Of a stretch of 64,000 bases of DNA, positions 7,191 to 59,227 are shown piece after piece. This DNA is from an uncultured Candidatus Saccharibacteria bacterium (GTDB lineage Bacteria; Patescibacteriota; Dojkabacteria; J137), in NCBI GenBank assembly GCA_964620955.1, contig CAZUKH010000001.1, positions 124,593 to 188,592 on the forward strand, read 5' to 3'. Every line of letters starts with the position of its first letter. Within the stretch, counting starts at the first letter, position 1. Both the position numbers and the translations under genes were made by a program. Below the pieces are notes generated by a model. That model saw nothing but the letters and a program-made list of their open reading frames with translations. It searched no databases and was not told the origin of the DNA.

Positions 7191-8025
7191 CTTTTGAATG
7201 ATACTGCAGAAAGCCCATTGATTCAAATATGTCAGACACATTTGCAGGTTCGTTTGTAGTGCCTCGTTTTCCTTCTGGGGCAAGATATGGAGAGTCTGTT
7301 TCAAAATAAATATTTGATCTGTAGTAGTCTTCTGGTGTCGATAATTTCTTGCCAGTCAAAATTTTTTTGTATGTCTGCCTTAACTCTAAAGCATTTTTAA
7401 AAGTGATTATGCCATTTATTCCCAATCCCCACCCTGCGTCAAGAATCTTTACTGCTGTATTGTAATCTCCGGTGTAAGAATGAAAAACTCCTTTTGTATT
7501 ATATTTTTTTACTACTCTTAAACACTCTTCTTCGGCACCTCTAGAATGTATAGTTAACGGCAAATTTAATTCGGATGCTAGCTCAAGCTGAATCTCAAAA
7601 AGACGTTTTTGAAGTAGTTTTGATTTATTTTTAAATTCTGAAGATAAGTCTGAGTTATTTAACCAGTAGTAATCTAAGCCAGTTTCACCAATTCCAATTA
7701 CTTTTGAGCGGTTTTGTAGAATAATTTTTTTTAGAGATTCATAAGATTGTTGTAACATTTCATCTAAATCTAAGCCCATGAATAGTTCTGACCCTGGAAT
7801 GAAAACTTCAGGATCTATACCTATAAAACTTTTTACAATTTCAGATTCTATTGACATTGATTGTGTTGAAGTTTTTAAATTCACAGAAACATTCCAAATT
7901 TGTGATATATTTTTTGCTTTTGCTTTCGCAATCTGACTTTGAAGAATTTCTGGTGACTCGAAGGGCAAATGACAATGTGAATCTATTAGTCCTACGGGAT
8001 TCTTGAGTAGTTTGTATAAATCCAT
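7183..8025 (-). CDS. tatD: TatD family metal-dependent hydrolase/DNase
   Basis: IDSHCHL, GIGETGLDYYW, HSRGAEEE, HSYTGD, ETDSPYLAP. Conserved TatD motifs. Confidence 0.85.
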   Translation of the reverse strand: MDLYKLLKNPVGLIDSHCHLPFESPEILQSQIAKAKAKNISQIWNVSVNLKTSTQSMSIESEIVKSFIGIDPEVFIPGSELFMGLDLDEMLQQSYESLKKIILQNRSKVIGIGETGLDYYWLNNSDLSSEFKNKSKLLQKRLFEIQLELASELNLPLTIHSRGAEEECLRVVKKYNTKGVFHSYTGDYNTAVKILDAGWGLGINGIITFKNALELRQTYKKILTGKKLSTPEDYYRSNIYFETDSPYLAPEGKRGTTNEPANVSDIFESMGFLQYHSKDE

Positions 8026-8103
8026 GTGTCAATTATAATTCATTGAAGCCAGTTGTGCCAAAAAACCCTCGCAGTACAAACATTTGGAGATCGAACAAAA
8101 ATC

Positions 8104-8112
8104 TGCTAAAAT
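8104..8112 (+). promoter_or_regulatory. Extended -10 element (TGcTAAAAT) upstream of rpsT
   Basis: tgctaaaat lies about 28 nt upstream of the rpsT ATG. No clear -35. Confidence 0.35.
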
Positions 8113-8139
8113 CATCGAGCTAATTTGATACAATTATTT

Positions 8140-8400
8140 ATGGCAAATACAGCTTCAGCAAAAAAAGCAATAAGAGTTTCAGCACGAAACGCTGTTGTTA
8201 ATAAGAGGACTAAAGTTTCGTATAAGCACGCAAAAAAGCAAGTGCTAAAAGCAGTCGCAGAAGGTGACAAGAAAAAGGCTTTAAAGCTTTTGCCCCAAGC
8301 CTATAAGCAAATTGACAAAGCAGCAAAGAAGATATTGCATAAAAAAACTGCTGCGCGTTATAAATCCAGGCTTGCTGCTAAAGTTAATGCTGTTAAGTAA
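8140..8400 (+). CDS. rpsT: 30S ribosomal protein S20
   Basis: MANTASAKKAIRVSARNAVVNKR...KKTAARYKSRLAAKVNAV. Typical bS20. ATG at 8140 preferred over TTG at 8125. Confidence 0.9.
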   Translation: MANTASAKKAIRVSARNAVVNKRTKVSYKHAKKQVLKAVAEGDKKKALKLLPQAYKQIDKAAKKILHKKTAARYKSRLAAKVNAVK

Positions 8401-8442
8401 AGTTGGTGTTTGCTGGCATTAAATTAGTTACTTCTTTTGTAA

Positions 8443-8994
8443 GTGTCAAAATCATTTTTAAAACTTGTTGATTACGCAATTGTACCTGCAATCGCTATCA
8501 TTTTGGGCAAAATTGTTGGTATTGCAATTGTTTCTGCTGCATTAGGCATACCTGTTTCTTTAAGAGAGTATTCTGAGAGCATATTGAATGCTGCACCTTA
8601 CGTCCCTTTGCAAGATCTTTCTGTTGTTGCCTCATTTTCTGATTTAATTATGTTTGCCTTTTCTGCTGGAGTTTTTAGTTTTTCTATTTTTCAAGCAGTT
8701 TATTTGCATGATTCGCATATAAAACCGACTTTAGCGGTACGATTAATAAATAAAGGTTTATGGAGATTAATTCAAAATTCATATGAAATTTACCACTCCT
8801 CATTTGTTGGATTAATTTTTTTATGGCTTGCAACTATAGCAATAATAATAAATGCTGCAATTGGTTTAACATATGTGTGGGTCGTGGTAATTGCTGTGGT
8901 AATTTCATCTTTACTTAGCTTGATATTATTACAAGATGTTTACCGGGAAGTAGAAAATTTGCGAAAAAGTCCTGGTCAGTACAGTTGGGAATAA
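8443..8994 (+). CDS. Hypothetical membrane protein (GTG start)
   Basis: Long ORF with several hydrophobic helices. No recognised motif. Confidence 0.45.
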   Translation: MSKSFLKLVDYAIVPAIAIILGKIVGIAIVSAALGIPVSLREYSESILNAAPYVPLQDLSVVASFSDLIMFAFSAGVFSFSIFQAVYLHDSHIKPTLAVRLINKGLWRLIQNSYEIYHSSFVGLIFLWLATIAIIINAAIGLTYVWVVVIAVVISSLLSLILLQDVYREVENLRKSPGQYSWE

Positions 8995-9296
8995 CAAGTT
9001 TTACTATCTATTATTTTAAAAGCATGGACTCATCCGATAAAAAAGAACTATTAACCTTAAGGCTAAGTAATAAAAATCTTCAATCACAAGTTGATTTTGA
9101 AAATAGGTGGGTAAAAAAAATTTCAATACTAAGCATTACGTTAGTTTCAACTTTAATAGCCGGACTTATTCTAAACCTTGAAGATGTAGGCCGTCTGGTT
9201 GTTTTTGCGCTAAGTTCTACAGCTATAATAACGCTTTTAAAAATTGTACTTTTTCGAATAATCAAGATTGTGTTTAAACGCTTGAAGTCTTATTAG
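8985..9296 (+). CDS. Hypothetical small membrane protein
   Basis: 103-aa ORF with one TM segment (ISILSITLVSTLIAGLIL) and a basic C-terminus. Confidence 0.4.
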   Translation: MGITSFTIYYFKSMDSSDKKELLTLRLSNKNLQSQVDFENRWVKKISILSITLVSTLIAGLILNLEDVGRLVVFALSSTAIITLLKIVLFRIIKIVFKRLKSY

Positions 9297-9931: not shown

Positions 9932-11482
9932 ATGAATAGTAAAAATCTGGGTGATTTATCTAAAATTGTTGTTGCTCAAATAAAATCCAAGCGTAAACAC
10001 GAAAATGCCGATAGGCTGAATATAGTTGAAATTGACGCCGGGCAGTCAAACGACTCTGCTTTGCTTAATGAAAATGGGTTTATTCAAGTAGTAACAGCAG
10101 CCAACAACTTTGAGGTTAATGATCTTGTTGCATGGGCAGCTCCAGGTTGCTCTGTGCCAGGGTGGGTAGCAAAAGGAGACAATATAGTTTTAGAATCAAG
10201 AGATATGCGTGGACAAATATCACATGGGATGATATTAGCTGAAGATGAACTGGGAATAGGTAAAGATCACGAAGGTATATTTGTAATTGATAAAAAACAC
10301 ACTAATCTTATTGGAAGTTCTGTTTCTAAAGTGCAAAGTTTGCTAAGCAAACCTAACGACCAAGACATATTACAAGATCTTAAAAAAGTTACTACCGAGA
10401 TACTTGGTGCCGAAGATCTTTTGCAGCTATTGTCAACTGAATCAAAACTTAATCATTATATTGGGTTTGAAATTTCTGGTCTTGTTCATCTTGGGCAAGG
10501 ACTAATGAGTGGAATTGTAATAAGAGAGCTTCAAAAACTTGGGATTAATACAAGAATTTTCCTTGCAGACTGGCACACCTGGATTAACAATAAGCTTAAA
10601 GGAGATATGGAATTTATTCAAAAAGTTGCTTCAGAATATTTTATACCTGCAATGAAATCCGCAATAAGCATCGCAGGAGGAAATGCAGATGCTGTCGAAT
10701 TTATATTGGGTTCCAACCTGTACCATAATAATGATAAATACTGGCAAACAGTTGTAGATATAAGCAAAAATCTCACGCTTTCACGTGTACTAAAATCTAC
10801 AACCATTTTGGGACGGGAGAGTTCACAAAGTATGGAGTTTGCAATGTTAATTTACCCTTCGATGCAAGCGGCAGATATTTTTGAAATGCAAAACCATATT
10901 GCGCACGCGGGTACCGACCAAAGAAATGTACATGTCATTGCAAGAGAAGTAGCCTCGAAAATAACTGTTCAAAAACTTATGGTTAATAACAATTCTATAA
11001 AGCCTATTTCTATACATCACGAACTAGTACCAGGGTTACAAAAGCCCTCAGAATGGCCATTGCCAAAGAATATTTCAAAACATGACATGCTTACAAGTCT
11101 TAAGATGAGTAAATCTATACCCGACTCGGCAATATTTATTCAAGATGATGTGGAAGAAATTAAAAGAAAAATTAACCAGGCATTTTGTCCTGAAAAAGAA
11201 ATCGGTTACAACCCAGTTCTTTCATGGGTCAGACTTCTCATTTTCCCAATAAATAATAAATTTGAACTTAAAAGAGAAGCTCGATATGGGGGAGATAGAA
11301 TTTACAAGAATTATAGCGAGCTTGAATCTGACTATGCTAATGGTACTGTGTTCCCACTTGATTTAAAAAATAATGTGGCAGAAACACTGATTAAAATGCT
11401 ACAACCTGCACGTGATGTTTTTAATAGTGCAGAAAAGAAAATGATTATTCAGGAAATTTTAGCAGTAAGGAAAACCCGTTAA
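9932..11482 (+). CDS. Class I aminoacyl-tRNA synthetase of the Tyr/Trp subfamily (likely archaeal/eukaryotic-type tyrosyl-tRNA synthetase) with an N-terminal Myf/Trbp111-type tRNA-binding OB domain
   Basis: N-terminal ~130 aa: KIVVAQIKSKRKHENADRLNIVEIDAGQ...GMILAEDELGIG (tRNA-binding domain). Then GFEISGLVHLGQG (HIGH-equivalent, G-F/Y-E-P-S-G pattern), YPSMQAADI and KMSKS. Confidence 0.7.
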   Translation: MNSKNLGDLSKIVVAQIKSKRKHENADRLNIVEIDAGQSNDSALLNENGFIQVVTAANNFEVNDLVAWAAPGCSVPGWVAKGDNIVLESRDMRGQISHGMILAEDELGIGKDHEGIFVIDKKHTNLIGSSVSKVQSLLSKPNDQDILQDLKKVTTEILGAEDLLQLLSTESKLNHYIGFEISGLVHLGQGLMSGIVIRELQKLGINTRIFLADWHTWINNKLKGDMEFIQKVASEYFIPAMKSAISIAGGNADAVEFILGSNLYHNNDKYWQTVVDISKNLTLSRVLKSTTILGRESSQSMEFAMLIYPSMQAADIFEMQNHIAHAGTDQRNVHVIAREVASKITVQKLMVNNNSIKPISIHHELVPGLQKPSEWPLPKNISKHDMLTSLKMSKSIPDSAIFIQDDVEEIKRKINQAFCPEKEIGYNPVLSWVRLLIFPINNKFELKREARYGGDRIYKNYSELESDYANGTVFPLDLKNNVAETLIKMLQPARDVFNSAEKKMIIQEILAVRKTR

Positions 11483-13106: not shown

Positions 13107-14168
13107 ATGCAAATTCTAGGTGTATCGACAAAAGATCAAGAAGAAGCGGTAAATATTTTAGCTAAAGGAGGTCTTGTTATTTACCCAACTGAAACTGCAT
13201 ACGGCGCAGGTGTTGATGCTACAAATAAATTAGCAGTGGGTAAACTCCTCGAGTTTAAAAAACGCCCTACTGGTAAAGCAATATCAATTGCTTGTAGCTC
13301 ATATAGCATGGCCCAAAGTTATGTAATAATAAATAAAGCAGCTGACAATTTGTATAAAGAATTTCTTCCGGGGCCTCTTACTATTGTATCTTTTTCTAAA
13401 AATAAAGTAGATAAACGTCTTGAGTCTGAGGATAGCACTTTGGGTGTAAGAATCCCGAATAATGAATTTGCGCTAGGAATGATTGAGAAACTTAAAAGGC
13501 CCGTTACTGCTACATCTGCAAACTCTTTCGGTAACGCCACTCCTTACTCAATAGAATCCATACTTGAAAATTTAACTGAAAAACAAAAGTCTATTGTAGA
13601 TTTAATAATTGATGCGGGGCATCTTCCAAAAAGGTTGACTTCAACAGTTGTTGATACAACAAGAAATACATTAAGAACTTTTCGCAAAGGAGCTATTAAG
13701 TTTGGATCTAATAAACCTCAAAAAGTAATTGTTAGTAAAAATGTTGAAGAAACACTAAACCTAGCCGAAATACTCACCAAAAACTTACTAAGCGATGGTT
13801 TTAATAACATTGTTTATCTATTATCTGGGGAGCTAGGTGCGGGCAAAACACATTTTGCGAAAGGGGTGGCAAAAGCCTTAGGGGTAAACGCAGTAGTTAA
13901 ATCTCCTACTTATGGATATGTGTCTGAATATAAAATACCTTATTCAACTCAAAAGTTTATACATGTTGACGCCTGGAAAATCGTTAATAAAAGAGAACTC
14001 GAAGCGCTAGGCCTTAATAATTTGATTAAAACTTCAAAGGTTGTGGTTATCGAATGGCCTGAAGTAATTGAAAATCTTGATAAAGACTTTTTTAATAAGT
14101 TTAAACCAATTGCAGTGTATATTGACTCGATTGATGAGCAAACAAGAAAAATGAGTATTTTCCAATAA
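13107..14168 (+). CDS. Fusion protein: L-threonylcarbamoyladenylate synthase TsaC/YrdC domain + tRNA t6A biosynthesis ATPase TsaE (YjeE) domain
   Basis: N-terminal: LAKGGLVIYPTETAYGAGVDATN...LLEFKKRP (YrdC/Sua5). C-terminal: LLSGELGAGKTHFAKGVAKALGV..KSPTYGYVSEY...HVDAWKI...IEWPE (TsaE P-loop). Confidence 0.8.
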   Translation: MQILGVSTKDQEEAVNILAKGGLVIYPTETAYGAGVDATNKLAVGKLLEFKKRPTGKAISIACSSYSMAQSYVIINKAADNLYKEFLPGPLTIVSFSKNKVDKRLESEDSTLGVRIPNNEFALGMIEKLKRPVTATSANSFGNATPYSIESILENLTEKQKSIVDLIIDAGHLPKRLTSTVVDTTRNTLRTFRKGAIKFGSNKPQKVIVSKNVEETLNLAEILTKNLLSDGFNNIVYLLSGELGAGKTHFAKGVAKALGVNAVVKSPTYGYVSEYKIPYSTQKFIHVDAWKIVNKRELEALGLNNLIKTSKVVVIEWPEVIENLDKDFFNKFKPIAVYIDSIDEQTRKMSIFQ

Positions 14169-44406: not shown

Positions 44407-44835
44407 CTAGATATTTTGTTCTGTGACTTGGAAGATATCAATATTATAAAGTCTTCTAATCATCTCACGAATAAATTCTTTCCTTGAGGGTTTTATTGAT
44501 GGTGTTTCGCCCCTTGTATAAATCTCAAACATTGTATTAGCTGCTACTCTGAGCTTATCTTGATCTTCAAAATTGCCCACAAGTTTTTTTGAAAAATCAT
44601 TCAAGGTATTTTTCAAGCTTGTAAGCAATGTATTCAAAGGCTTATCTACTATTCCAACTTTTTCAAGTAATATTTTGGCATCATTAATAATAATTTTCAC
44701 AAGCAAATTCGCACCATTTTTTAATTGCTCCAAAGAATTAATAGAAGAATACTTATTGGCGAAATCTTCTCTCACGAGTAATTCTGTTACTTGAGGATTT
44801 TTTTCATCTATTTGGGGTTCTGCAGTCATTACCAT
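44407..44835 (-). CDS. Hypothetical protein
   Basis: 142-aa ORF. 7-nt overlap with the valS stop region. Confidence 0.45.
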   Translation of the reverse strand: MVMTAEPQIDEKNPQVTELLVREDFANKYSSINSLEQLKNGANLLVKIIINDAKILLEKVGIVDKPLNTLLTSLKNTLNDFSKKLVGNFEDQDKLRVAANTMFEIYTRGETPSIKPSRKEFIREMIRRLYNIDIFQVTEQNI

Positions 44836-47618
44836 TTTGTATACATTAAAAAATTATGTTCATTTTTTGCTTTAGGTACTTCGTTCCACAACCTTTGAGT
44901 AATAAAAGGCACGAATGGATGAAGAAGTTTAAGATATTGCTTAAGTGCAAACATTAAAACATCCGCAGTTTCACGCTTTTCTTCATTAGAAGGTGATGAA
45001 ATTATGCGAGACGTCTCTTTATCTTTTTTATCATAAAGGTGAGGTTTAGAGCTTTCTAATAATACATCACAAAAAGTATGCCAAAATTCTTGGTACAACG
45101 TTTCGGTAGCATATCCAAATTCAAACTCTTGAATGTAGTCTGTGACTTTTTGGTGGACTTCGGTGATGTGGTTGAATATATTTTTCGAGTTTTCTAGCTT
45201 TAAAGCTTCAGGTTTCAGGCTCGTGGCTGCGGGGGCTTCCTGATGCCCTATCCCTATTGCCTGGTTCCCTAATACAAATCTCGATGCATTCCAAATTTTA
45301 TTCATAAACTGTTTAAAGTTTTTCAGCTTATCGTAAGTCATTGAATAGCTTGCTCCTGCGGAGTTTTGATAGTAGTAAACCATCCTAACCGCGTCTGTAC
45401 CATACTCTACCCTTACTTTATCTATGTCAATTACATTCCCTTTAGACTTGCTCATTTTTTGTCCATCAGTACCTTTTACTAACCCTGTTAAATAAAGATG
45501 TTTAAAAGGTATTTGTTTGGTTTTAAAATAACTAAACATCATCATTCGGGAGTCCCAATTTTCTAGAATATCGAATCCTGAAACCATTACGTCTGTTGGA
45601 TAAAAGGAGTCCATTAAATTGTATTTCTGTAATGTTGCAAATGGCCATTGACCCGAGCTAAACCACGTATCAAGCACAGATTCGTCTTGGAACCAACCTT
45701 CACCAGGACTTTCTTTCTGTACTCTTAGATGATTTGGATTATCATACTCAAGTTGAACCCAGTTTTCAGCCTCTACCCCTTGCTCCTTGCCTGCTGCAAG
45801 CTGAATCATTTCTTTAACTTCTCCATTTCCCCCAATTTCTTCTTTTACCTGGCCGTGATACCAAACTGGCAAACGATACCCCCACCAAAGAGATCTTGAA
45901 ATTGCCCAATCTCGTAAGTTATCCATCCAATGATTAAATTTTGCAATCATAGATTCAGGGTGAATTGTAACAGAACCGGCTTCAGGTTTCGGGACTGAGG
46001 CTTTGAGCGATGACGTTCGAACGGCTGGGGGGTCTGCCAACTGCCTGCTGCTCGCTGCCCGCTGCCCATTTTCCACCATTTCCTTAGCAGCCTCTTTAAG
46101 TCCATCGTATTTTAAATACCATTGAGATGATAATAATGGCTCAATTGGTGCCTTAGTACGCTCTGCAATTGCAACTTTATTTTTATAAAGGTTATCTACA
46201 TAAACTAAATTGCCATGCTTTTTCATATCTTCTTTCATAAGCTCTCTAGCCTCCTTTGTTTTTATACCTTTGTAGGGCCCTGTAAGCCCATTTAAGCGCA
46301 AGTCGTACCCTATTACGGTAATTGCCGGCAAGCATTCTTTAGTGTGCCTCATGGCTATTTCCCAGTCTTCTACAGCGTGCGCCGGAGTAACTTTTAGCAA
46401 ACCTGTACCAAAGTCTTTATCGACTGCATAGTCTGCAATAAAGTTTAACTTTTTCTTTTGACCTAAAAATTCAACTTCTACTTTTTTACCAACAAAGTCT
46501 TTGTATCGATCATCTTTTGGATTACAAGCAATTGCAGTATCTGCAAAAATGGTTTCGGGCCGCACAGTACCAATAATAAATCCATTTGTATAAAATTTAT
46601 CTTCAGGATATTCATCGAAAAGCATGAAATGAGATCCTGCAATAATCTTTGACTTTTCTTGAAAAACCTTGAAAACCTCCTCATTTATGTCTCCTTTAAA
46701 TTCTTTTGAAACCACTAAAATATGAATATTACCATCCATTCTCATTTCTACACCAATGGCTTTTCCTTTTATTTCTAGTCCAGTTTCAATTTTTTCATAG
46801 CCTATACCTACAACTAATTCTGAGCCATAAGTGCTTCCTACAATATATGAACTTTCTTCTTGCTCATCTTTTGCTGGGGGATATTGTCCCACATTCCATA
46901 CAACTTCTTTTCCCTCAAACTTATTTTTTAATTGTATGGCTTTTTCTTCCGGTTCAGTAAATGCATATTTAAAATAAAAAAATGGCGTTTGAGACTCTAC
47001 ATATTCAATCTGGTTATCTGCTACTGCAGTTCTTCCTTTTGGGTCCCAATTTACTATTCTTACTCCCTTATAAATACGGCCTTCTTTGTACATTTCCACA
47101 AAAGTATCTAAAACTGTTTCCACAATATCTTCGTCCAAGGTAAAAGTGTCGCGGTCAAAATCTGCTGAAAGTCCTATTTCCTGTTCATCTTTCTTGGCTT
47201 TTTTCATGTTTTCTAGGTTAAACTCCATCATCATTTTATAAAACTCTTCTCTTTTTAAATCGAACTTGTTAATCTTTTTCTTTTCTAAAACTTCTCTTAC
47301 AAAAACACCTTCTCCTTCCAACCCTGCATGATCTTTGCCAGGAATCATAAGTACTTTTTTACCCTGCATTCGTTGGAATCTTGCCATTGCATCCATATAT
47401 GCATACCCAGAAAGATTGCCTATATGCGGTCTACCGTAAGCATTTGGTGGAGGGCAGACTAATGCCCATGGAGTTCTTTTATCTTTAAGCATTTCTTCTT
47501 TAGAAACAATTTTAGAAGTGGCTGGATCAAACTCTGGTTTATAACTACCAGATTTTAACCACTCTTCAAGAATCTTTTTTTCTTCTTCGCTGTAATTGTA
47601 TGGTCCTTGAGGTAGCAT
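44829..47618 (-). CDS. valS: Valyl-tRNA synthetase
   Basis: PPPNAYGRPHIGN (HIGH region), DWAISRSLWWGYRLPVWY, KMSKSKGN. 929 aa. Contains a GC-rich low-complexity insertion (RAASSRQLADPPAVRTSSLKASVPKPEAG). Confidence 0.9.
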   Translation of the reverse strand: MLPQGPYNYSEEEKKILEEWLKSGSYKPEFDPATSKIVSKEEMLKDKRTPWALVCPPPNAYGRPHIGNLSGYAYMDAMARFQRMQGKKVLMIPGKDHAGLEGEGVFVREVLEKKKINKFDLKREEFYKMMMEFNLENMKKAKKDEQEIGLSADFDRDTFTLDEDIVETVLDTFVEMYKEGRIYKGVRIVNWDPKGRTAVADNQIEYVESQTPFFYFKYAFTEPEEKAIQLKNKFEGKEVVWNVGQYPPAKDEQEESSYIVGSTYGSELVVGIGYEKIETGLEIKGKAIGVEMRMDGNIHILVVSKEFKGDINEEVFKVFQEKSKIIAGSHFMLFDEYPEDKFYTNGFIIGTVRPETIFADTAIACNPKDDRYKDFVGKKVEVEFLGQKKKLNFIADYAVDKDFGTGLLKVTPAHAVEDWEIAMRHTKECLPAITVIGYDLRLNGLTGPYKGIKTKEARELMKEDMKKHGNLVYVDNLYKNKVAIAERTKAPIEPLLSSQWYLKYDGLKEAAKEMVENGQRAASSRQLADPPAVRTSSLKASVPKPEAGSVTIHPESMIAKFNHWMDNLRDWAISRSLWWGYRLPVWYHGQVKEEIGGNGEVKEMIQLAAGKEQGVEAENWVQLEYDNPNHLRVQKESPGEGWFQDESVLDTWFSSGQWPFATLQKYNLMDSFYPTDVMVSGFDILENWDSRMMMFSYFKTKQIPFKHLYLTGLVKGTDGQKMSKSKGNVIDIDKVRVEYGTDAVRMVYYYQNSAGASYSMTYDKLKNFKQFMNKIWNASRFVLGNQAIGIGHQEAPAATSLKPEALKLENSKNIFNHITEVHQKVTDYIQEFEFGYATETLYQEFWHTFCDVLLESSKPHLYDKKDKETSRIISSPSNEEKRETADVLMFALKQYLKLLHPFVPFITQRLWNEVPKAKNEHNFLMYTKW

Positions 47619-50747: not shown

Positions 50748-51932
50748 TCATGGGTGGCGATTACTCCCAGAAGCAGGCTTAACTGGTCCAGGTATGACAT
50801 AGTCAATATACGGTGTAACATTCTGAAGATTGTTAAGATCGAATACCCTAAGAATGGAGTTCAAATTACCCGATTCGTCTGGACTATAAAATGCAACACA
50901 GGGCAAACCGTTTGCAACAAAAAAGTTGAGTGGAACCCTATCTAATGGAATTTGTCGAAACTGCCGGCTTTCGAAATAGTATAAGCCATAATCTGCGTTT
51001 GGATAGCCTCTATTTACTAGAGCTACTTCTTCGTTATCTATTGTTCCAATGCCAAATAGTCTGGGTTCTTCCCCAAGTACAGATATAGCCTCAACCGTAT
51101 TTCCTTCGGTGTCAATCATCAAAGCAGGTCCGCTTTGATCACTTTGACCATTGGGAATCACGAAAATATTTGTTTGCCCATTCAGCCAAACTGGAACCAG
51201 CGAATAATCTCGGCTTTGTCTGGCTCTATAAAAAACTTCTCTATTGGTTTCTAACTGCGGTATAGTAGACAAGATTACACCTTCACCATTGATTAATAGT
51301 ATTTTCGACCTAATTGGAGAATCACCCTCATCTACTTGAATAATAAAACTCCCCCTCCTTCCACCTAAAAGATTCCAATTGTTATACGGAGATGTATCTA
51401 TGGTAGTTAGGGTATAGCTGGGCCATTCAATATTAAATATACCTAGCTTTTGCTCGTCATCAGGTGAGCCCTCATAATACTCAGCGACAAAAACTGCCTC
51501 TCCCACATGGTAGATGTGACCCTGGTAAATATATTCGTTGATGTGTACAGTCCAAGGCATTAAAGTTAAGGGATTAACATTTACTATGTTTGTACCGTTG
51601 TTATAACTAATTATCCAATCTCCACCTTCGCTTACTCGCGGTGCTATCCATGATTCATCACGAATTCCTGTAAGTGAAATTGAATTCATAACGGAGGGAT
51701 ACCATAAGGCCAACACGTGTGACCGTTCACTAGAGGGGCCTGCTGGTGGCTGCGGGTAAGTCACGAGAACTGGTGACTGAGACCCTCCCTGTGTTATTGC
51801 ACAAATTGTAATAGTAAATCCCCCAAACAAAGCTACTGCAACTTTGAAAAGCCTTGAGTTTCCCAGGAATGGACTCTCTTCATTTAGTGCTCTTAGTGGA
51901 TTTTCTTGAGGTGCTTGGCTGGATTGATCCAT
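50748..51932 (-). CDS. Hypothetical membrane-anchored extracytoplasmic protein
   Basis: Start set at the internal MDQSSQAP (51932), ahead of TM LFKVAVALFGGFTITICAI. A strong promoter lies inside the longer ORF version (to 52046). Confidence 0.5.
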   Translation of the reverse strand: MDQSSQAPQENPLRALNEESPFLGNSRLFKVAVALFGGFTITICAITQGGSQSPVLVTYPQPPAGPSSERSHVLALWYPSVMNSISLTGIRDESWIAPRVSEGGDWIISYNNGTNIVNVNPLTLMPWTVHINEYIYQGHIYHVGEAVFVAEYYEGSPDDEQKLGIFNIEWPSYTLTTIDTSPYNNWNLLGGRRGSFIIQVDEGDSPIRSKILLINGEGVILSTIPQLETNREVFYRARQSRDYSLVPVWLNGQTNIFVIPNGQSDQSGPALMIDTEGNTVEAISVLGEEPRLFGIGTIDNEEVALVNRGYPNADYGLYYFESRQFRQIPLDRVPLNFFVANGLPCVAFYSPDESGNLNSILRVFDLNNLQNVTPYIDYVIPGPVKPASGSNRHP

Positions 51933-52002
51933 TATCTTAGACTTGATTATTTGCCCAAAATAGCGACTACTGTTCGCCTTGAACCATTTGAATACTGTTG
52001 TA

Positions 52003-52030
52003 ATTTTAACACATCTTAACAATTTGTCAA
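52003..52030 (-). promoter_or_regulatory. Sigma-70 promoter on the minus strand: TTGACA-16-(TGt)TAAAAT, immediately downstream of the def stop
   Basis: Read on the minus strand: ttgaca aattgttaagatgtgt taaaat, with extended -10 TG. Positions the TSS about 60 nt upstream of ATG 51932. Confidence 0.5.
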
Positions 52031-52047
52031 CAGCCCTTAGCAGCACT

Positions 52048-56766: not shown

Positions 56767-58050
56767 ATGAAACTACAAAACTTACCTATAAAAGGTACTT
56801 CAGATTGGATGCCAAAAGAATTCGAAAAAAGAAAATATATCTTTGATGTTTGGCGCAAAACCTGTTTACAATTTGGCTATCAAGAGTATTTAACACCTTT
56901 GCTGGAGCCTGCGGAAATCTACCGCGCAAAATCAGGGGAAGATGTAGGCGGGCAAGAACTAACAACACTTGTCGATAGAGCAGGCCATGAGCTTGCGATA
57001 AGACCAGAAATGACACCTTCTGTTACACGAATGCTAAGCCGGTTTTATGGCGAGCTGACTAAGCCTGTTAGGCTTTTTTCTATTGCTAATTTTTTTCGCA
57101 ATGAAAAACCTCAAAAAGGCCGGAATAGAGAGTTTTGGCAACTAAATTTTGATATTTTTGGAAGTAATGCGTTGTCTTCTGATCTTGAAGTTCTTCAAAT
57201 CGCTATTGAAATTATGCGATCGTTTGGCGCAACTAAAGATATGTTTAAAGTTTACTTAAATAACAGAAAATTTATAGAATTTTTTATTAAAGACTACTTA
57301 AAAGTGCCAAACGATCGCATACAAGAGGCAGCAAGAACTTTAGACCGCTTCCCAAAAATGCCTAGCATAGAATTTATATCACAACTTGAAGCTATTGGGG
57401 TGAGTTTTCCTGATGGAAAAGACTTTTTTATTGAGCTTATGAGCAGGAATGAAGAAAGCGCTAAAAAAATCTTTGAAGATGCCAAAGAAAACGATGGAGT
57501 TAAACAAATCATAAGCTTGTTAGACCAAGTTAACAAACTAGGACTCTCGGATTTCATTGACTGGAACCCTGCAGTAATTAGAGGTTTTGATTATTACGAC
57601 AGAATGGTTTTTGAAGTGTTTGATAAAAACCCGGATAACAGCCGTGCATTATTTGGGGGTGGCCGGTACAATGGACTTGCAGGTATTTTTGACAAAGAAG
57701 CTTTTCCTGCAGTGGGTTGTGCTCCCGGTGACGAAACTACTAAAATCTTTTTAGATACATGGAATTTGTGGCCTAAAAACCTATCTCCTGAGATTGTTTT
57801 TTTGCCTATACTAGATAATAACCTGGAATTAGAAAGCAGAAATCTTGCAGCAAAGCTTAGAAACATGGGGCAAAATGTGCTTTTGGGACTAGAAACTGTA
57901 AAACTCACTAAAGCCCTTGAAATTGCTAACAAAAACTCTTACTCTAAAACTGTAATATTTGGCGAGTATGAAAAAAGAGATGGGGTTTATAAAGTAAAAG
58001 ACATGTTAACAGGCGAAGAAACTTCACTTAACCTGCCTTCAAATGTTTGA
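56767..58050 (+). CDS. hisS: Histidyl-tRNA synthetase
   Basis: Class II motif 2 FRNEKPQKGRNREFWQLNFDIFG. HisRS-specific GGRYNGL-like motif. C-terminal anticodon-binding domain. Confidence 0.9.
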   Translation: MKLQNLPIKGTSDWMPKEFEKRKYIFDVWRKTCLQFGYQEYLTPLLEPAEIYRAKSGEDVGGQELTTLVDRAGHELAIRPEMTPSVTRMLSRFYGELTKPVRLFSIANFFRNEKPQKGRNREFWQLNFDIFGSNALSSDLEVLQIAIEIMRSFGATKDMFKVYLNNRKFIEFFIKDYLKVPNDRIQEAARTLDRFPKMPSIEFISQLEAIGVSFPDGKDFFIELMSRNEESAKKIFEDAKENDGVKQIISLLDQVNKLGLSDFIDWNPAVIRGFDYYDRMVFEVFDKNPDNSRALFGGGRYNGLAGIFDKEAFPAVGCAPGDETTKIFLDTWNLWPKNLSPEIVFLPILDNNLELESRNLAAKLRNMGQNVLLGLETVKLTKALEIANKNSYSKTVIFGEYEKRDGVYKVKDMLTGEETSLNLPSNV

Positions 58051-58063
58051 TAGACTGCAATAG

Positions 58064-59227
58064 ATGCAAAAAGAATCACAAAAGAAAATTAGCGGGAAAT
58101 TGGTTTTGGCATTAAGCTTGTTTGCAATAGTTGCAATAATTGGAATAGGACTATTATTTATTCAGCTTGTAGCAAGAGAAAATAATATCCAAGAAGAAAA
58201 TAGAAATTCTGTAGATAGAGTAGAAAACAATAACCAAGAGTCCAGCAACCTTGATAGCGAGGGGAACGAAATAGTTGTTGAGATTGAAGAATCAAGTCCA
58301 AAAAGATTTGCTGCTATACTTGTAAATGACACTATAAGCCTTTTTGATGAGAACAATGAAAGCATTCCACTAAACTTGCAGCAGTTAGGTTGGACAGACA
58401 TAAAGTGGAGTCCAGATGGATCGCAGATAAGCGTAAAAGGTAAAGCCGCTAACCAAAACTACGACCTTGCAATTTATACTTTTTCCAATAAAAACTGGGA
58501 ATGGATAACAAATTTTGCCTTAGAAGAGACTGGCGTAGACAATTACTTTTGGGCAGGTAATGAAATCGTTTTTATGCAAGGTGTAGGAGCTAACCGTTGG
58601 CTACACAGATTTTCACAAGGTTCTGTAAACAAGCTTATTCAAGTTGATGGCTCAATTGAAAGCGTATCTTCGGACGGTAAGTTAATTGTTTTGAGAAGGT
58701 TATATGATAATGGACTGGAGGTTTATAACCTGCAAAATGGACAGCAATGGGATTTAACAAATATGATTGATCCTGATGGGGTGGCCTTTAGTGTTAGCGC
58801 TGTCTGGTTTTTGAAAGACACTACTAAGGCTTTAATAAGAGGAGAGTCTCAAAAACTAGAATCTACTTTCCTTTATAAAGCTAATTTTGGTGAGTCAGTT
58901 GGAGTACAAGTTGTTGTAGAAGCTGATACAGTAGAAACATTACTTCCACTTTGTTTTGCAAATAGCGATGTAATATTTGGAATAGTTTCTGACCCTATCT
59001 TTGAACAAGATTATTTTATTAAATTAAATGTCAAAAATTTTGAAGAAGAGCTAATAGCCGACTTACCCTTGTTTGAAAAAGAAACTGCTGTGTGCATTAC
59101 TGCAGGAGCTATTTTAATTAAAAATAACGAGGGTCTTACAACTGTATGGACTCTTATAGACAAAGATGGTAGCCAAAAACTAAACTTTTTGACAGATGCC
59201 AAAGAGGTTGACTACTTTGAAGGCTAG
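58064..59227 (+). CDS. Hypothetical membrane-anchored extracytoplasmic protein (possible beta-propeller)
   Basis: N-terminal TM (LVLALSLFAIVAIIGIGLLFI). Repeated WSPDGS / DG motifs reminiscent of TolB-like propeller blades. Confidence 0.45.
   Translation: MQKESQKKISGKLVLALSLFAIVAIIGIGLLFIQLVARENNIQEENRNSVDRVENNNQESSNLDSEGNEIVVEIEESSPKRFAAILVNDTISLFDENNESIPLNLQQLGWTDIKWSPDGSQISVKGKAANQNYDLAIYTFSNKNWEWITNFALEETGVDNYFWAGNEIVFMQGVGANRWLHRFSQGSVNKLIQVDGSIESVSSDGKLIVLRRLYDNGLEVYNLQNGQQWDLTNMIDPDGVAFSVSAVWFLKDTTKALIRGESQKLESTFLYKANFGESVGVQVVVEADTVETLLPLCFANSDVIFGIVSDPIFEQDYFIKLNVKNFEEELIADLPLFEKETAVCITAGAILIKNNEGLTTVWTLIDKDGSQKLNFLTDAKEVDYFEG

Follow-up and report, generated by a model that had tools for sequence, protein, structure and literature searches.

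An archaeal-type tyrosyl-tRNA synthetase with an N-terminal PheRS-beta B2-like domain in Candidatus Dojkabacteria, and the apparent replacement of the catalytic core behind it

Background

An identity barrier separates the two kinds of tyrosyl-tRNA synthetase (TyrRS) and tRNA-Tyr. The bacterial system has a G1-C72 pair, a long variable arm and an S4-like domain on the enzyme, whereas the archaeal and eukaryal tRNA-Tyr has C1-G72 and no such arm. Bacteria of the Candidate Phyla Radiation (CPR) with an archaeal-type TyrRS break this domain-specific identity rule. One such enzyme is described here. It is encoded at positions 9932..11482 on the forward strand of a 64,000-nucleotide stretch of contig CAZUKH010000001.1 (GCA_964620955.1), and this whole stretch is referred to as the window. 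At its N-terminus the enzyme carries an oligonucleotide/oligosaccharide-binding fold (OB-fold) that resembles the B2 domain of the beta subunit of bacterial phenylalanyl-tRNA synthetase (PheRS-beta, PheT).

Fusions of B2 to TyrRS in CPR bacteria were described by Mukai, Reynolds, Crnkovic & Soll (2017, Life 7:8; PMC5370408), in the WS6 bacterium GW2011_GWA2_37_6 and on two contigs from the Klosterneuburg activated sludge. According to the same paper, CPR bacteria including WS6 have an archaea/eukarya-type TyrRS together with a C1-G72 tRNA-Tyr in which the bacterial variable arm is often retained, many CPR PheRS-beta proteins are without B2, and a few LysRS proteins of the Microgenomates have the same domain at their C-terminus. 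Two nearly identical contigs that differ in the TyrRS part only led to the suggestion that the core had been replaced (PMC5370408). A literature search found no later work on the B2-TyrRS fusion.

The window gene has the published architecture, an N-terminal B2 on an archaea/eukarya-type TyrRS in one open reading frame (ORF), and WS6 is the phylum Dojkabacteria. Since this architecture was published from WS6 in 2017, the gene is a further example of a known fusion from the same phylum. An earlier reading of the window, made from the sequence alone (the sequence-only reading), had called the N-terminal placement of the tRNA-binding domain unusual. This stands in so far as the placement is rare across life, but it has been published for WS6/CPR (PMC5370408) and is recurrent in Dojkabacteria.

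Results and Discussion

The gene and its reading frame

The complete gene is an uninterrupted ATG-initiated frame of 516 amino acids (aa) followed by a stop codon. The two Pfam profiles that the sequence-only reading had proposed as a check are both matched above threshold: tRNA_bind (PF01588) at aa 12-122 with an E value of 1.6e-10 and 41.3 bits against a gathering cutoff of 27, and tRNA-synt_1b (PF00579) at aa 171-491 with an E value of 1.3e-36. The strings KIVVAQIKS, ADRLNIVEID, HGMILAEDELGIG, GFEISGLVHLGQG and KMSKS, quoted in that reading, are all present in the translation. The full-length AlphaFold2 model, for which 76 homologues were the input, has a mean predicted local distance difference test score (pLDDT) of 90.2 and a predicted template modelling score (pTM) of 0.75.

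It could be argued that the fusion is an artefact of assembly or gene calling, in which a sequencing error has merged a free-standing tRNA-binding gene with an unfused TyrRS gene. Both components do exist in nature. Free-standing proteins of ~142-155 aa with a B2-like domain are known from the searches (P0127, P0131 and P0134), as are close unfused relatives of the TyrRS (P0010 and others). However, the window ORF runs from the B2 into the TyrRS domain with neither a stop codon nor a frameshift, and the two separate ORFs that the sequence-only reading had allowed for are one continuous frame. Seven independently assembled homologues of 517-528 aa have the same fused architecture and are co-linear with the window protein from residue 1, and they thereby support the choice of start codon as well as the fusion. 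The same fusion is found in 12 species-level genomes of GTDB, the junction region is conserved, and the architecture has been independently published (PMC5370408). An artefact is effectively refuted as an explanation. The identification of the gene as an archaeal-type TyrRS with an N-terminal B2 in one ORF is made with high confidence.

The TyrRS core

With NF006330, the equivalog model for archaeal-type TyrRS, the core scores 380.9 bits where the cutoff is 220, and the match runs over aa 145-504 and over positions 5-335 of the 342-position model. The bacterial TyrRS model TIGR00234 scores 69.6 bits, below its cutoff of 113.8, and over aa 145-343 only. This agrees with the sequence-only reading, in which the core was of archaeal/eukaryotic rather than bacterial type. 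The closest solved structures to the core are the TyrRS of Pyrococcus horikoshii (2cyc, 6e-115) and of Nanoarchaeum equitans (7fg6, 1.4e-80). When the predicted core is superposed on 2cyc_A, the target-normalised template modelling (TM) score is 0.92, with a root-mean-square deviation (rmsd) of 2.5 Å and 48% identity, and on 7fg6 the TM score is 0.91.

The catalytic Rossmann-fold domain (aa 151-399, positions 10382..11128, + strand) is delimited by PF00579 and by the alignment to residues 10-363 of 2cyc_A. It contains the HIGH-class signature in the form HLGQ (aa 186-189, 10487..10498, +), which aligns with HLGT of the P. horikoshii and HLGH of the Methanocaldococcus jannaschii TyrRS, and the KMSKS loop (aa 391-395, 11102..11116, +); both were read from the translation. 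It is followed by an archaeal-type C-terminal anticodon-binding domain (aa 400-516, 11129..11479, +) that aligns to the end of 2cyc and 7fg6. The window protein shares with these two enzymes the HLGx and KMSKS motifs and an inserted segment before KMSKS. Unlike it, the archaeal enzymes have no N-terminal appendage, and their start is aligned at about window residue 149. A bacterial S4-like C-terminal domain is not present; neither S4 nor any other C-terminal Pfam match was found in the window protein.

Residues Y176, Q312, D315 and Q330 align with the tyrosine-binding residues Y32, Q155, D158 and Q173 of the M. jannaschii TyrRS, and D477 aligns with its D286, the residue that recognises G34 of the anticodon. 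The M. jannaschii sequence used for this mapping agrees with the match to 1j1u. All five of these residues, together with H186 and G188, are invariant in the alignment of 76 homologues. Within KMSKS, K391, M392, K394 and S395 are likewise invariant in this alignment and S393 is at least 90% conserved. The enzyme therefore looks, from its sequence, catalytically competent and tyrosine-specific.

A different view would be that the gene does not encode the housekeeping TyrRS. Its product could then be a TrpRS, or else a class Ic paralogue that arose by duplication or has a special task, for example in resistance or regulation. TyrRS and TrpRS are homologous class Ic enzymes and there is a weak match to TrpS, the best being TIGR00233 with 83 bits. 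This is far under the cutoff of 176.75, as are all the other TrpRS models (NF0089xx, at most 50 bits against cutoffs of 320-644), in contrast to NF006330, which is far over its own. The confident TrpRS core that the sequence-only reading had considered is thus not what the models report. The residues that bind tyrosine and the Asp that recognises G34 are invariant, and in related genomes this place in the conserved gene order is likewise occupied by the TyrRS gene. The 64-kb window encodes no second TyrRS or TrpRS. Furthermore, CPR genomes are small and duplicate synthetases are rare in them. A paralogue is accordingly very improbable, and the enzyme is most likely the housekeeping TyrRS of the genome. 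We infer that it aminoacylates a C1-G72 tRNA-Tyr and is the sole TyrRS of the genome.

The N-terminal domain

The N-terminal domain (aa 1-122, 9932..10297, +) belongs to the tRNA_bind superfamily, as the match to PF01588 in the same ORF indicates. The sequence-only reading had described it as a Myf/Trbp111-type OB-fold. The OB-fold and its N-terminal position were correctly recognised, and the Myf/Trbp111 type holds at the level of the superfamily only; the subtype is that of PheRS B2. The bacterial pheT model TIGR00472 matches the domain at model positions 43-143 with 74.7 bits. In comparison, the CsaA/Trbp111 and MetRS C-terminal models reach 14.2 bits (NF007492) and 13.9 bits (TIGR00399).

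A profile of eight fused N-domains was searched exhaustively against 1.84 billion representative proteins. Only 12 clusters were at or below 1e-30, and these comprised fused TyrRSs, two MetRS C-termini, one Nudix fusion, a PheT N-terminal fragment and several proteins of ~140-180 aa. They were followed by a long list of ~800-aa proteins matched at positions 45-150, which corresponds to PheRS-beta B2. Members of the fused family score more than 130 bits with the family profile and the best PheT ~111 bits. With the N-domain alone, a word-index homologue search found a single PheT fragment.

The predicted structure agrees. The domain is beta-rich in the AlphaFold2 models, with a pLDDT of about 85-95, and a model of residues 1-149 has a pLDDT of 81. 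In a Foldseek search the first 11 ranks are all PheRS-beta chains (E values 3.5e-8 to 4.6e-7, TM 0.67-0.70, rmsd 1.5-2.7 Å), including B2 of Pseudomonas aeruginosa, Escherichia coli, Mycobacterium tuberculosis and Thermus thermophilus, with YtpR ranked after them. Trbp111, EMAPII, MetRS-C and Arc1p are ranked 23rd or lower, at E values of 3.8e-4 or weaker and TM 0.42-0.51. The Trbp111/Myf/EMAPII subtype is thus outscored by PheRS B2 in the sequence models and in Foldseek, and was rejected. By sequence and predicted fold, the domain is of the B2 subtype of bacterial PheRS-beta.

The PheT B2 domains (4p71_A, 6oz5_B, 1pys_B and 7k9m_B) are therefore the best relatives of the window domain in both sequence and structure. 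The B2 of PheT lies inside a subunit of ~800 aa, flanked by B1 and B3/4, whereas the window protein has it as a single domain N-terminal to a TyrRS. Among the eight fused homologues, 26 columns of the domain are invariant, including H23, A26, D27, R93, G94, S97 and M100. The signature motifs of the superfamily, xHxNADxL and RGxxSxGMxL, are kept.

Human YARS1 (1n3l for the core and 1ntg for the C-domain) also combines an archaeal/eukaryal-type core with an OB-fold of the tRNA_bind superfamily. The EMAPII-like domain of eukaryotic TyrRS increases tRNA binding. However, the human protein has an OB-fold of the EMAPII subtype at its C-terminus and the window protein one of the PheRS-B2 subtype at its N-terminus; 1ntg is found at Foldseek rank 45 with a TM of 0.41, against 0.70 for PheRS-beta. 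The OB-fold fusions of the window and of eukaryotic TyrRS are independent events.

YtpR (NF045760; 3bu2) and TapR (NF045867) are free-standing bacterial proteins whose C-terminal half is a B2-like OB-fold. The window domain is without their N-terminal half, only the C-terminal halves of the two models being matched. It is below the cutoffs of both, with 47.9 bits against 100 for YtpR and 28.5 against 120 for TapR, and membership of TapR was rejected on this basis. The name of TapR, 'TyrS-associated PheT N-terminal domain-related protein', implies that NCBI curators had found such a gene beside tyrS, and it is possible that TapR is a counterpart of the fusion that acts in trans. A literature search on TapR gave unrelated papers only.

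The linker

The two domains are joined by a linker of 28 aa (aa 123-150, 10298..10381, +). It is the shortest among 22 fused proteins, in which the others have 32-56 aa, and it is gapped relative to the homologues in the alignment. It is also the least confident part of the AlphaFold2 model, with a pLDDT of 68-82, and only short helices are predicted in it (135-138, 143-146 and 148-152). The 'long alpha-helix' described as the linker of the published B2-TyrRS (PMC5370408) is not evident in the window protein.

When sequences are compared in a sliding frame of 25 residues, all the other fused clades show a similar identity to the window protein over the first ~125 residues. Beyond about residue 150 the values separate by clade, with 47-98% to the window's own clade, 14-39% to a clade of ~490-aa proteins and 26-47% to a clade of 520- to 611-aa proteins (the 490 and 520/610 clades below). 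This pattern places the break in the linker, which is the boundary between the modules and the presumed recombination junction.

Different cores behind one B2 domain

On the basis of RpoB the window is placed in Candidatus Dojkabacteria (WS6, Patescibacteria/CPR): nearly all the named RpoB homologues at 58-79% identity to its own are from this phylum. When the GTDB species genomes were scanned for a single peptide pattern conserved in B2, 12 further B2-TyrRS genes emerged, in metagenome-assembled genomes (MAGs) of Dojkabacteria and other Patescibacteria. The fusion is present in at least 12 species-level genomes.

The cores of these proteins fall into several lineages. In neighbour-joining (NJ) trees the window's own core clade is recovered in 95 of 100 bootstraps, and the 490 and 520/610 clades in 100 of 100 each. 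The core of one fused protein, P0019, pairs with a TyrRS fused to a B3_4 domain (90/100). Monophyly of all fused cores was recovered in 0 of 100. The nearest solved relative of the window core is P. horikoshii TyrRS, those of the 490 clade are the yeast and human cytoplasmic TyrRS, and those of the 520/610 clade are the plant, Plasmodium and Leishmania enzymes. Judged from these relationships, three unrelated core types are found behind B2: Thermococcales/DPANN-like, opisthokont-like and plant/protist-like. The fused GTDB proteins of ~490 aa had been considered as TrpRS fusions, literal motif strings being absent from them, and this was rejected; the NCBIfam models identify them as TyrRS, with an opisthokont-like core.

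In contrast, the B2 domains are 37-54% identical to that of the window across all clades (42-54% when based on the alignment), while the cores of the other two types are 27-30% or 37-39% identical to the window core. The fused genes also share a neighbourhood, with TatD-S20-mem183 upstream and mem195-p121-Sua5-TsaE downstream. The RpoB encoded on the contig of L004, which has an opisthokont-like core, is 78% identical to that of the window, and on the contig of L012, with a plant-like core, it is 75% identical. A common neighbourhood, similar B2 domains with divergent cores and this level of RpoB identity make replacement of the catalytic core in situ, behind a retained B2 module, the simplest reading of the sequences.

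The published fusions are similar in having differing cores behind one B2 module, and in the occurrence of the module on LysRS as well. One of their cores is Pandoravirus-like, in contrast to the Thermococcales/DPANN-like core of the window. The core swap generalises the published two-contig example: at one locus the accessory B2 domain is more stable than the core.

One syntenic gene is an exception to the retention of B2. At 8001-9125 of locus L002 (GCA_034680565.1, JAXOUH010045271.1) there is a TyrRS without B2 whose core is 65% identical to that of the window. The order of genes upstream is GT4-TatD-S20-mem183. No remnant of B2 is detectable upstream of this TyrRS, which is preceded by a 336-aa ORF without a Pfam match. 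This indicates that B2 was lost, or never gained, within the window's core clade.

Other rearrangements were seen in the same family. The B2-TyrRS proteins of 608-611 aa (L012 5983-7812, L035 5968-7794 and P0125) have an insertion of ~90-100 aa within the catalytic core, and their Pfam and NCBIfam matches are split, or spread over ~430 residues for a model of 342 positions. In four proteins of ~540 aa (P0035, P0036, P0048 and P0051) the core is 52-56% identical and an N-terminal editing domain of the YbaK/ProX type (PF04073) replaces B2. We know of no described TyrRS with an editing-type domain in cis. Two others, P0039 and P0121 (594 and 618 aa), have an N-terminal PheRS-beta B3_4 domain (PF03483), which is the fold of the PheRS editing domain. 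As the B3_4-TyrRS core is sister to that of the B2-fused P0019, two different N-terminal modules of PheT have been grafted onto the TyrRS family.

The module is also found on other proteins. The GTDB scan gave a LysRS followed by a B2-like module and an HD domain (L010 4414-7053, 879 aa) and a MetRS with a B2-like C-terminus (L075 1576-3819, 747 aa); P0126 has the latter arrangement too. The C-terminal module of the MetRS scores 89 bits with the pheT model and 36 bits with the canonical metG C-terminal model. In P0128 (318 aa) a B2-like module is fused to a Nudix/IPP-isomerase-like domain.

Possible role of the B2 domain

The explanation that best covers the locus as a whole, and which we consider probable, is that of a housekeeping archaeal-type TyrRS with an accessory B2 domain that has been kept through swaps of the core and serves as a tRNA handle in cis. 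In this enzyme a class Ic core and anticodon domain of the Thermococcales/DPANN kind would be joined to B2 through a short flexible linker. The core would activate tyrosine and charge tRNA-Tyr in the manner of other archaeal-type TyrRS homodimers. B2 would be a lineage-specific accessory held at one chromosomal locus, where at least two replacements of the core behind it, by cores gained through horizontal transfer, may have taken place. The domain itself may act on the elbow or the variable arm of the tRNA, raising the affinity of the enzyme for it, and could stand in for the missing bacterial S4-like domain that binds the arm. Retention of B2 through the core swaps, together with its 26 invariant columns, suggests that it matters to TyrRS function in the lineage. 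The role of tRNA handle, the likeliest of those considered, is itself argued from analogy with the C-terminal EMAPII-like domain of eukaryotic TyrRS and is proposed tentatively, as one that may well prove mistaken.

There are several points that weigh against this explanation. The core trees are NJ trees built from simple or Kimura distances with 100 bootstraps, rather than maximum-likelihood trees. The part of the genome in view is the 64 kb of the window and a second TyrRS is possible elsewhere, which would favour a paralogue. A tRNA-Tyr was not found in the window or in 16 related loci, and near the related loci there was only one tRNA-Pro. As the syntenic core of L002 shows, some lineages at least can do without B2. 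All 22 fused proteins have an acidic B2 and linker, with an isoelectric point (pI) for B2 of 4.6-5.6, except for one of 6.7, and of 5.1 in the window; such an acidic domain is atypical for a general RNA-binding handle. The B2-like module is found on the Nudix protein P0128 as well. Finally, B2 of T. thermophilus PheRS is not known to make contact with tRNA in the crystal complex.

The acidity, the L002 gene without B2, the Nudix partner and the lack of a known contact in Thermus make protein docking a serious rival, even if an unlikely one. According to this alternative, B2 would be a domain for protein-protein docking or assembly that might tether the TyrRS to a component of translation (for instance a PheRS that lacks B2, or a different synthetase) or might stabilise the dimer. 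Uniform acidity of B2 and linker would suit a docking surface, as would the presence of the module on partners as unrelated as LysRS with HD, the C-terminus of MetRS and Nudix. The absence of B2 from many CPR PheRS-beta proteins reported by Mukai et al. (PMC5370408) also fits. However, nearly all of the fusion partners handle tRNA, which fits a tRNA role equally well, and among the conserved neighbouring genes none emerged as a candidate for a protein partner. The retained signature motifs are those of the tRNA_bind superfamily, members of which (Trbp111, MetRS-C, EMAPII and Arc1p) bind tRNA.

B2 and the linker might be thought of as a portable, lineage-specific 'adaptor cassette' of Dojkabacteria and related Patescibacteria, fixed at the 5' end of tyrS while archaeal- and eukaryote-like cores are swapped behind it, and with copies on LysRS, MetRS and Nudix proteins. 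This is possible, but rather doubtful.

The genomic neighbourhood

The window has a GC content of ~35% and encodes rpoB, rpoC, infB, rpsT, ftsW, recJ, ileS and hisS. Its synthetase genes are tyrS, ileS (44829-47618) and hisS (56767-58050). No tRNA genes or Rfam families were found in the 64 kb. Two ORFs, at 50748-52046 (432 aa) and directly after hisS at 58064-59227 (387 aa), have no Pfam match.

Sua5/TsaC and TsaE are enzymes of the t6A modification of tRNA and are usually separate. In the window they are encoded by a single ORF of 353 aa at 13107-14168 (+), with Sua5/TsaC (PF01300) at aa 17-195 and TsaE (PF02367) at aa 211-341. L004, L005 and L035 have this fused gene too, likewise downstream of the TyrRS locus.

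No Shine-Dalgarno sequence or strong promoter is evident 5' of the TyrRS ATG. Terminator-like hairpins are enriched between 9200 and 12200 of the window (7, against 1.8 +/- 1.2 in shuffles). Several of these fall within coding sequence, including the TyrRS gene on the opposite strand, and the enrichment is probably a compositional effect.

L004 (CAYTGI010000005.1), L012 (CAYMSO010000008.1) and similar MAGs that share the local synteny of the window are labelled 'uncultured Candidatus Saccharibacteria'. The NCBI label on such MAGs looks to be wrong or very coarse, their RpoB being 75-78% identical to that of the window and the other close named relatives being Dojkabacteria.

Conclusions

The window does not contain a new class of system. 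Both the architecture and the idea of core swapping were published in 2017, and the function given to B2 here is a proposal. What is new is the indication that TyrRS cores of at least three types, gained by horizontal transfer, have stood behind one B2 module at a single locus. This is useful for understanding the modular evolution of the synthetases and possibly for the engineering of orthogonal TyrRS/tRNA pairs.

For the CPR bacteria, the fusion with B2 is a candidate means of coping with a tRNA-Tyr that often keeps its bacterial arm. If it is true that B2 binds the retained variable arm or the elbow, its presence would make the Dojkabacteria and related Patescibacteria permissive to the serial uptake of foreign TyrRS cores, and the barrier of tRNA identity between bacteria and archaea would then be crossed by modular means.

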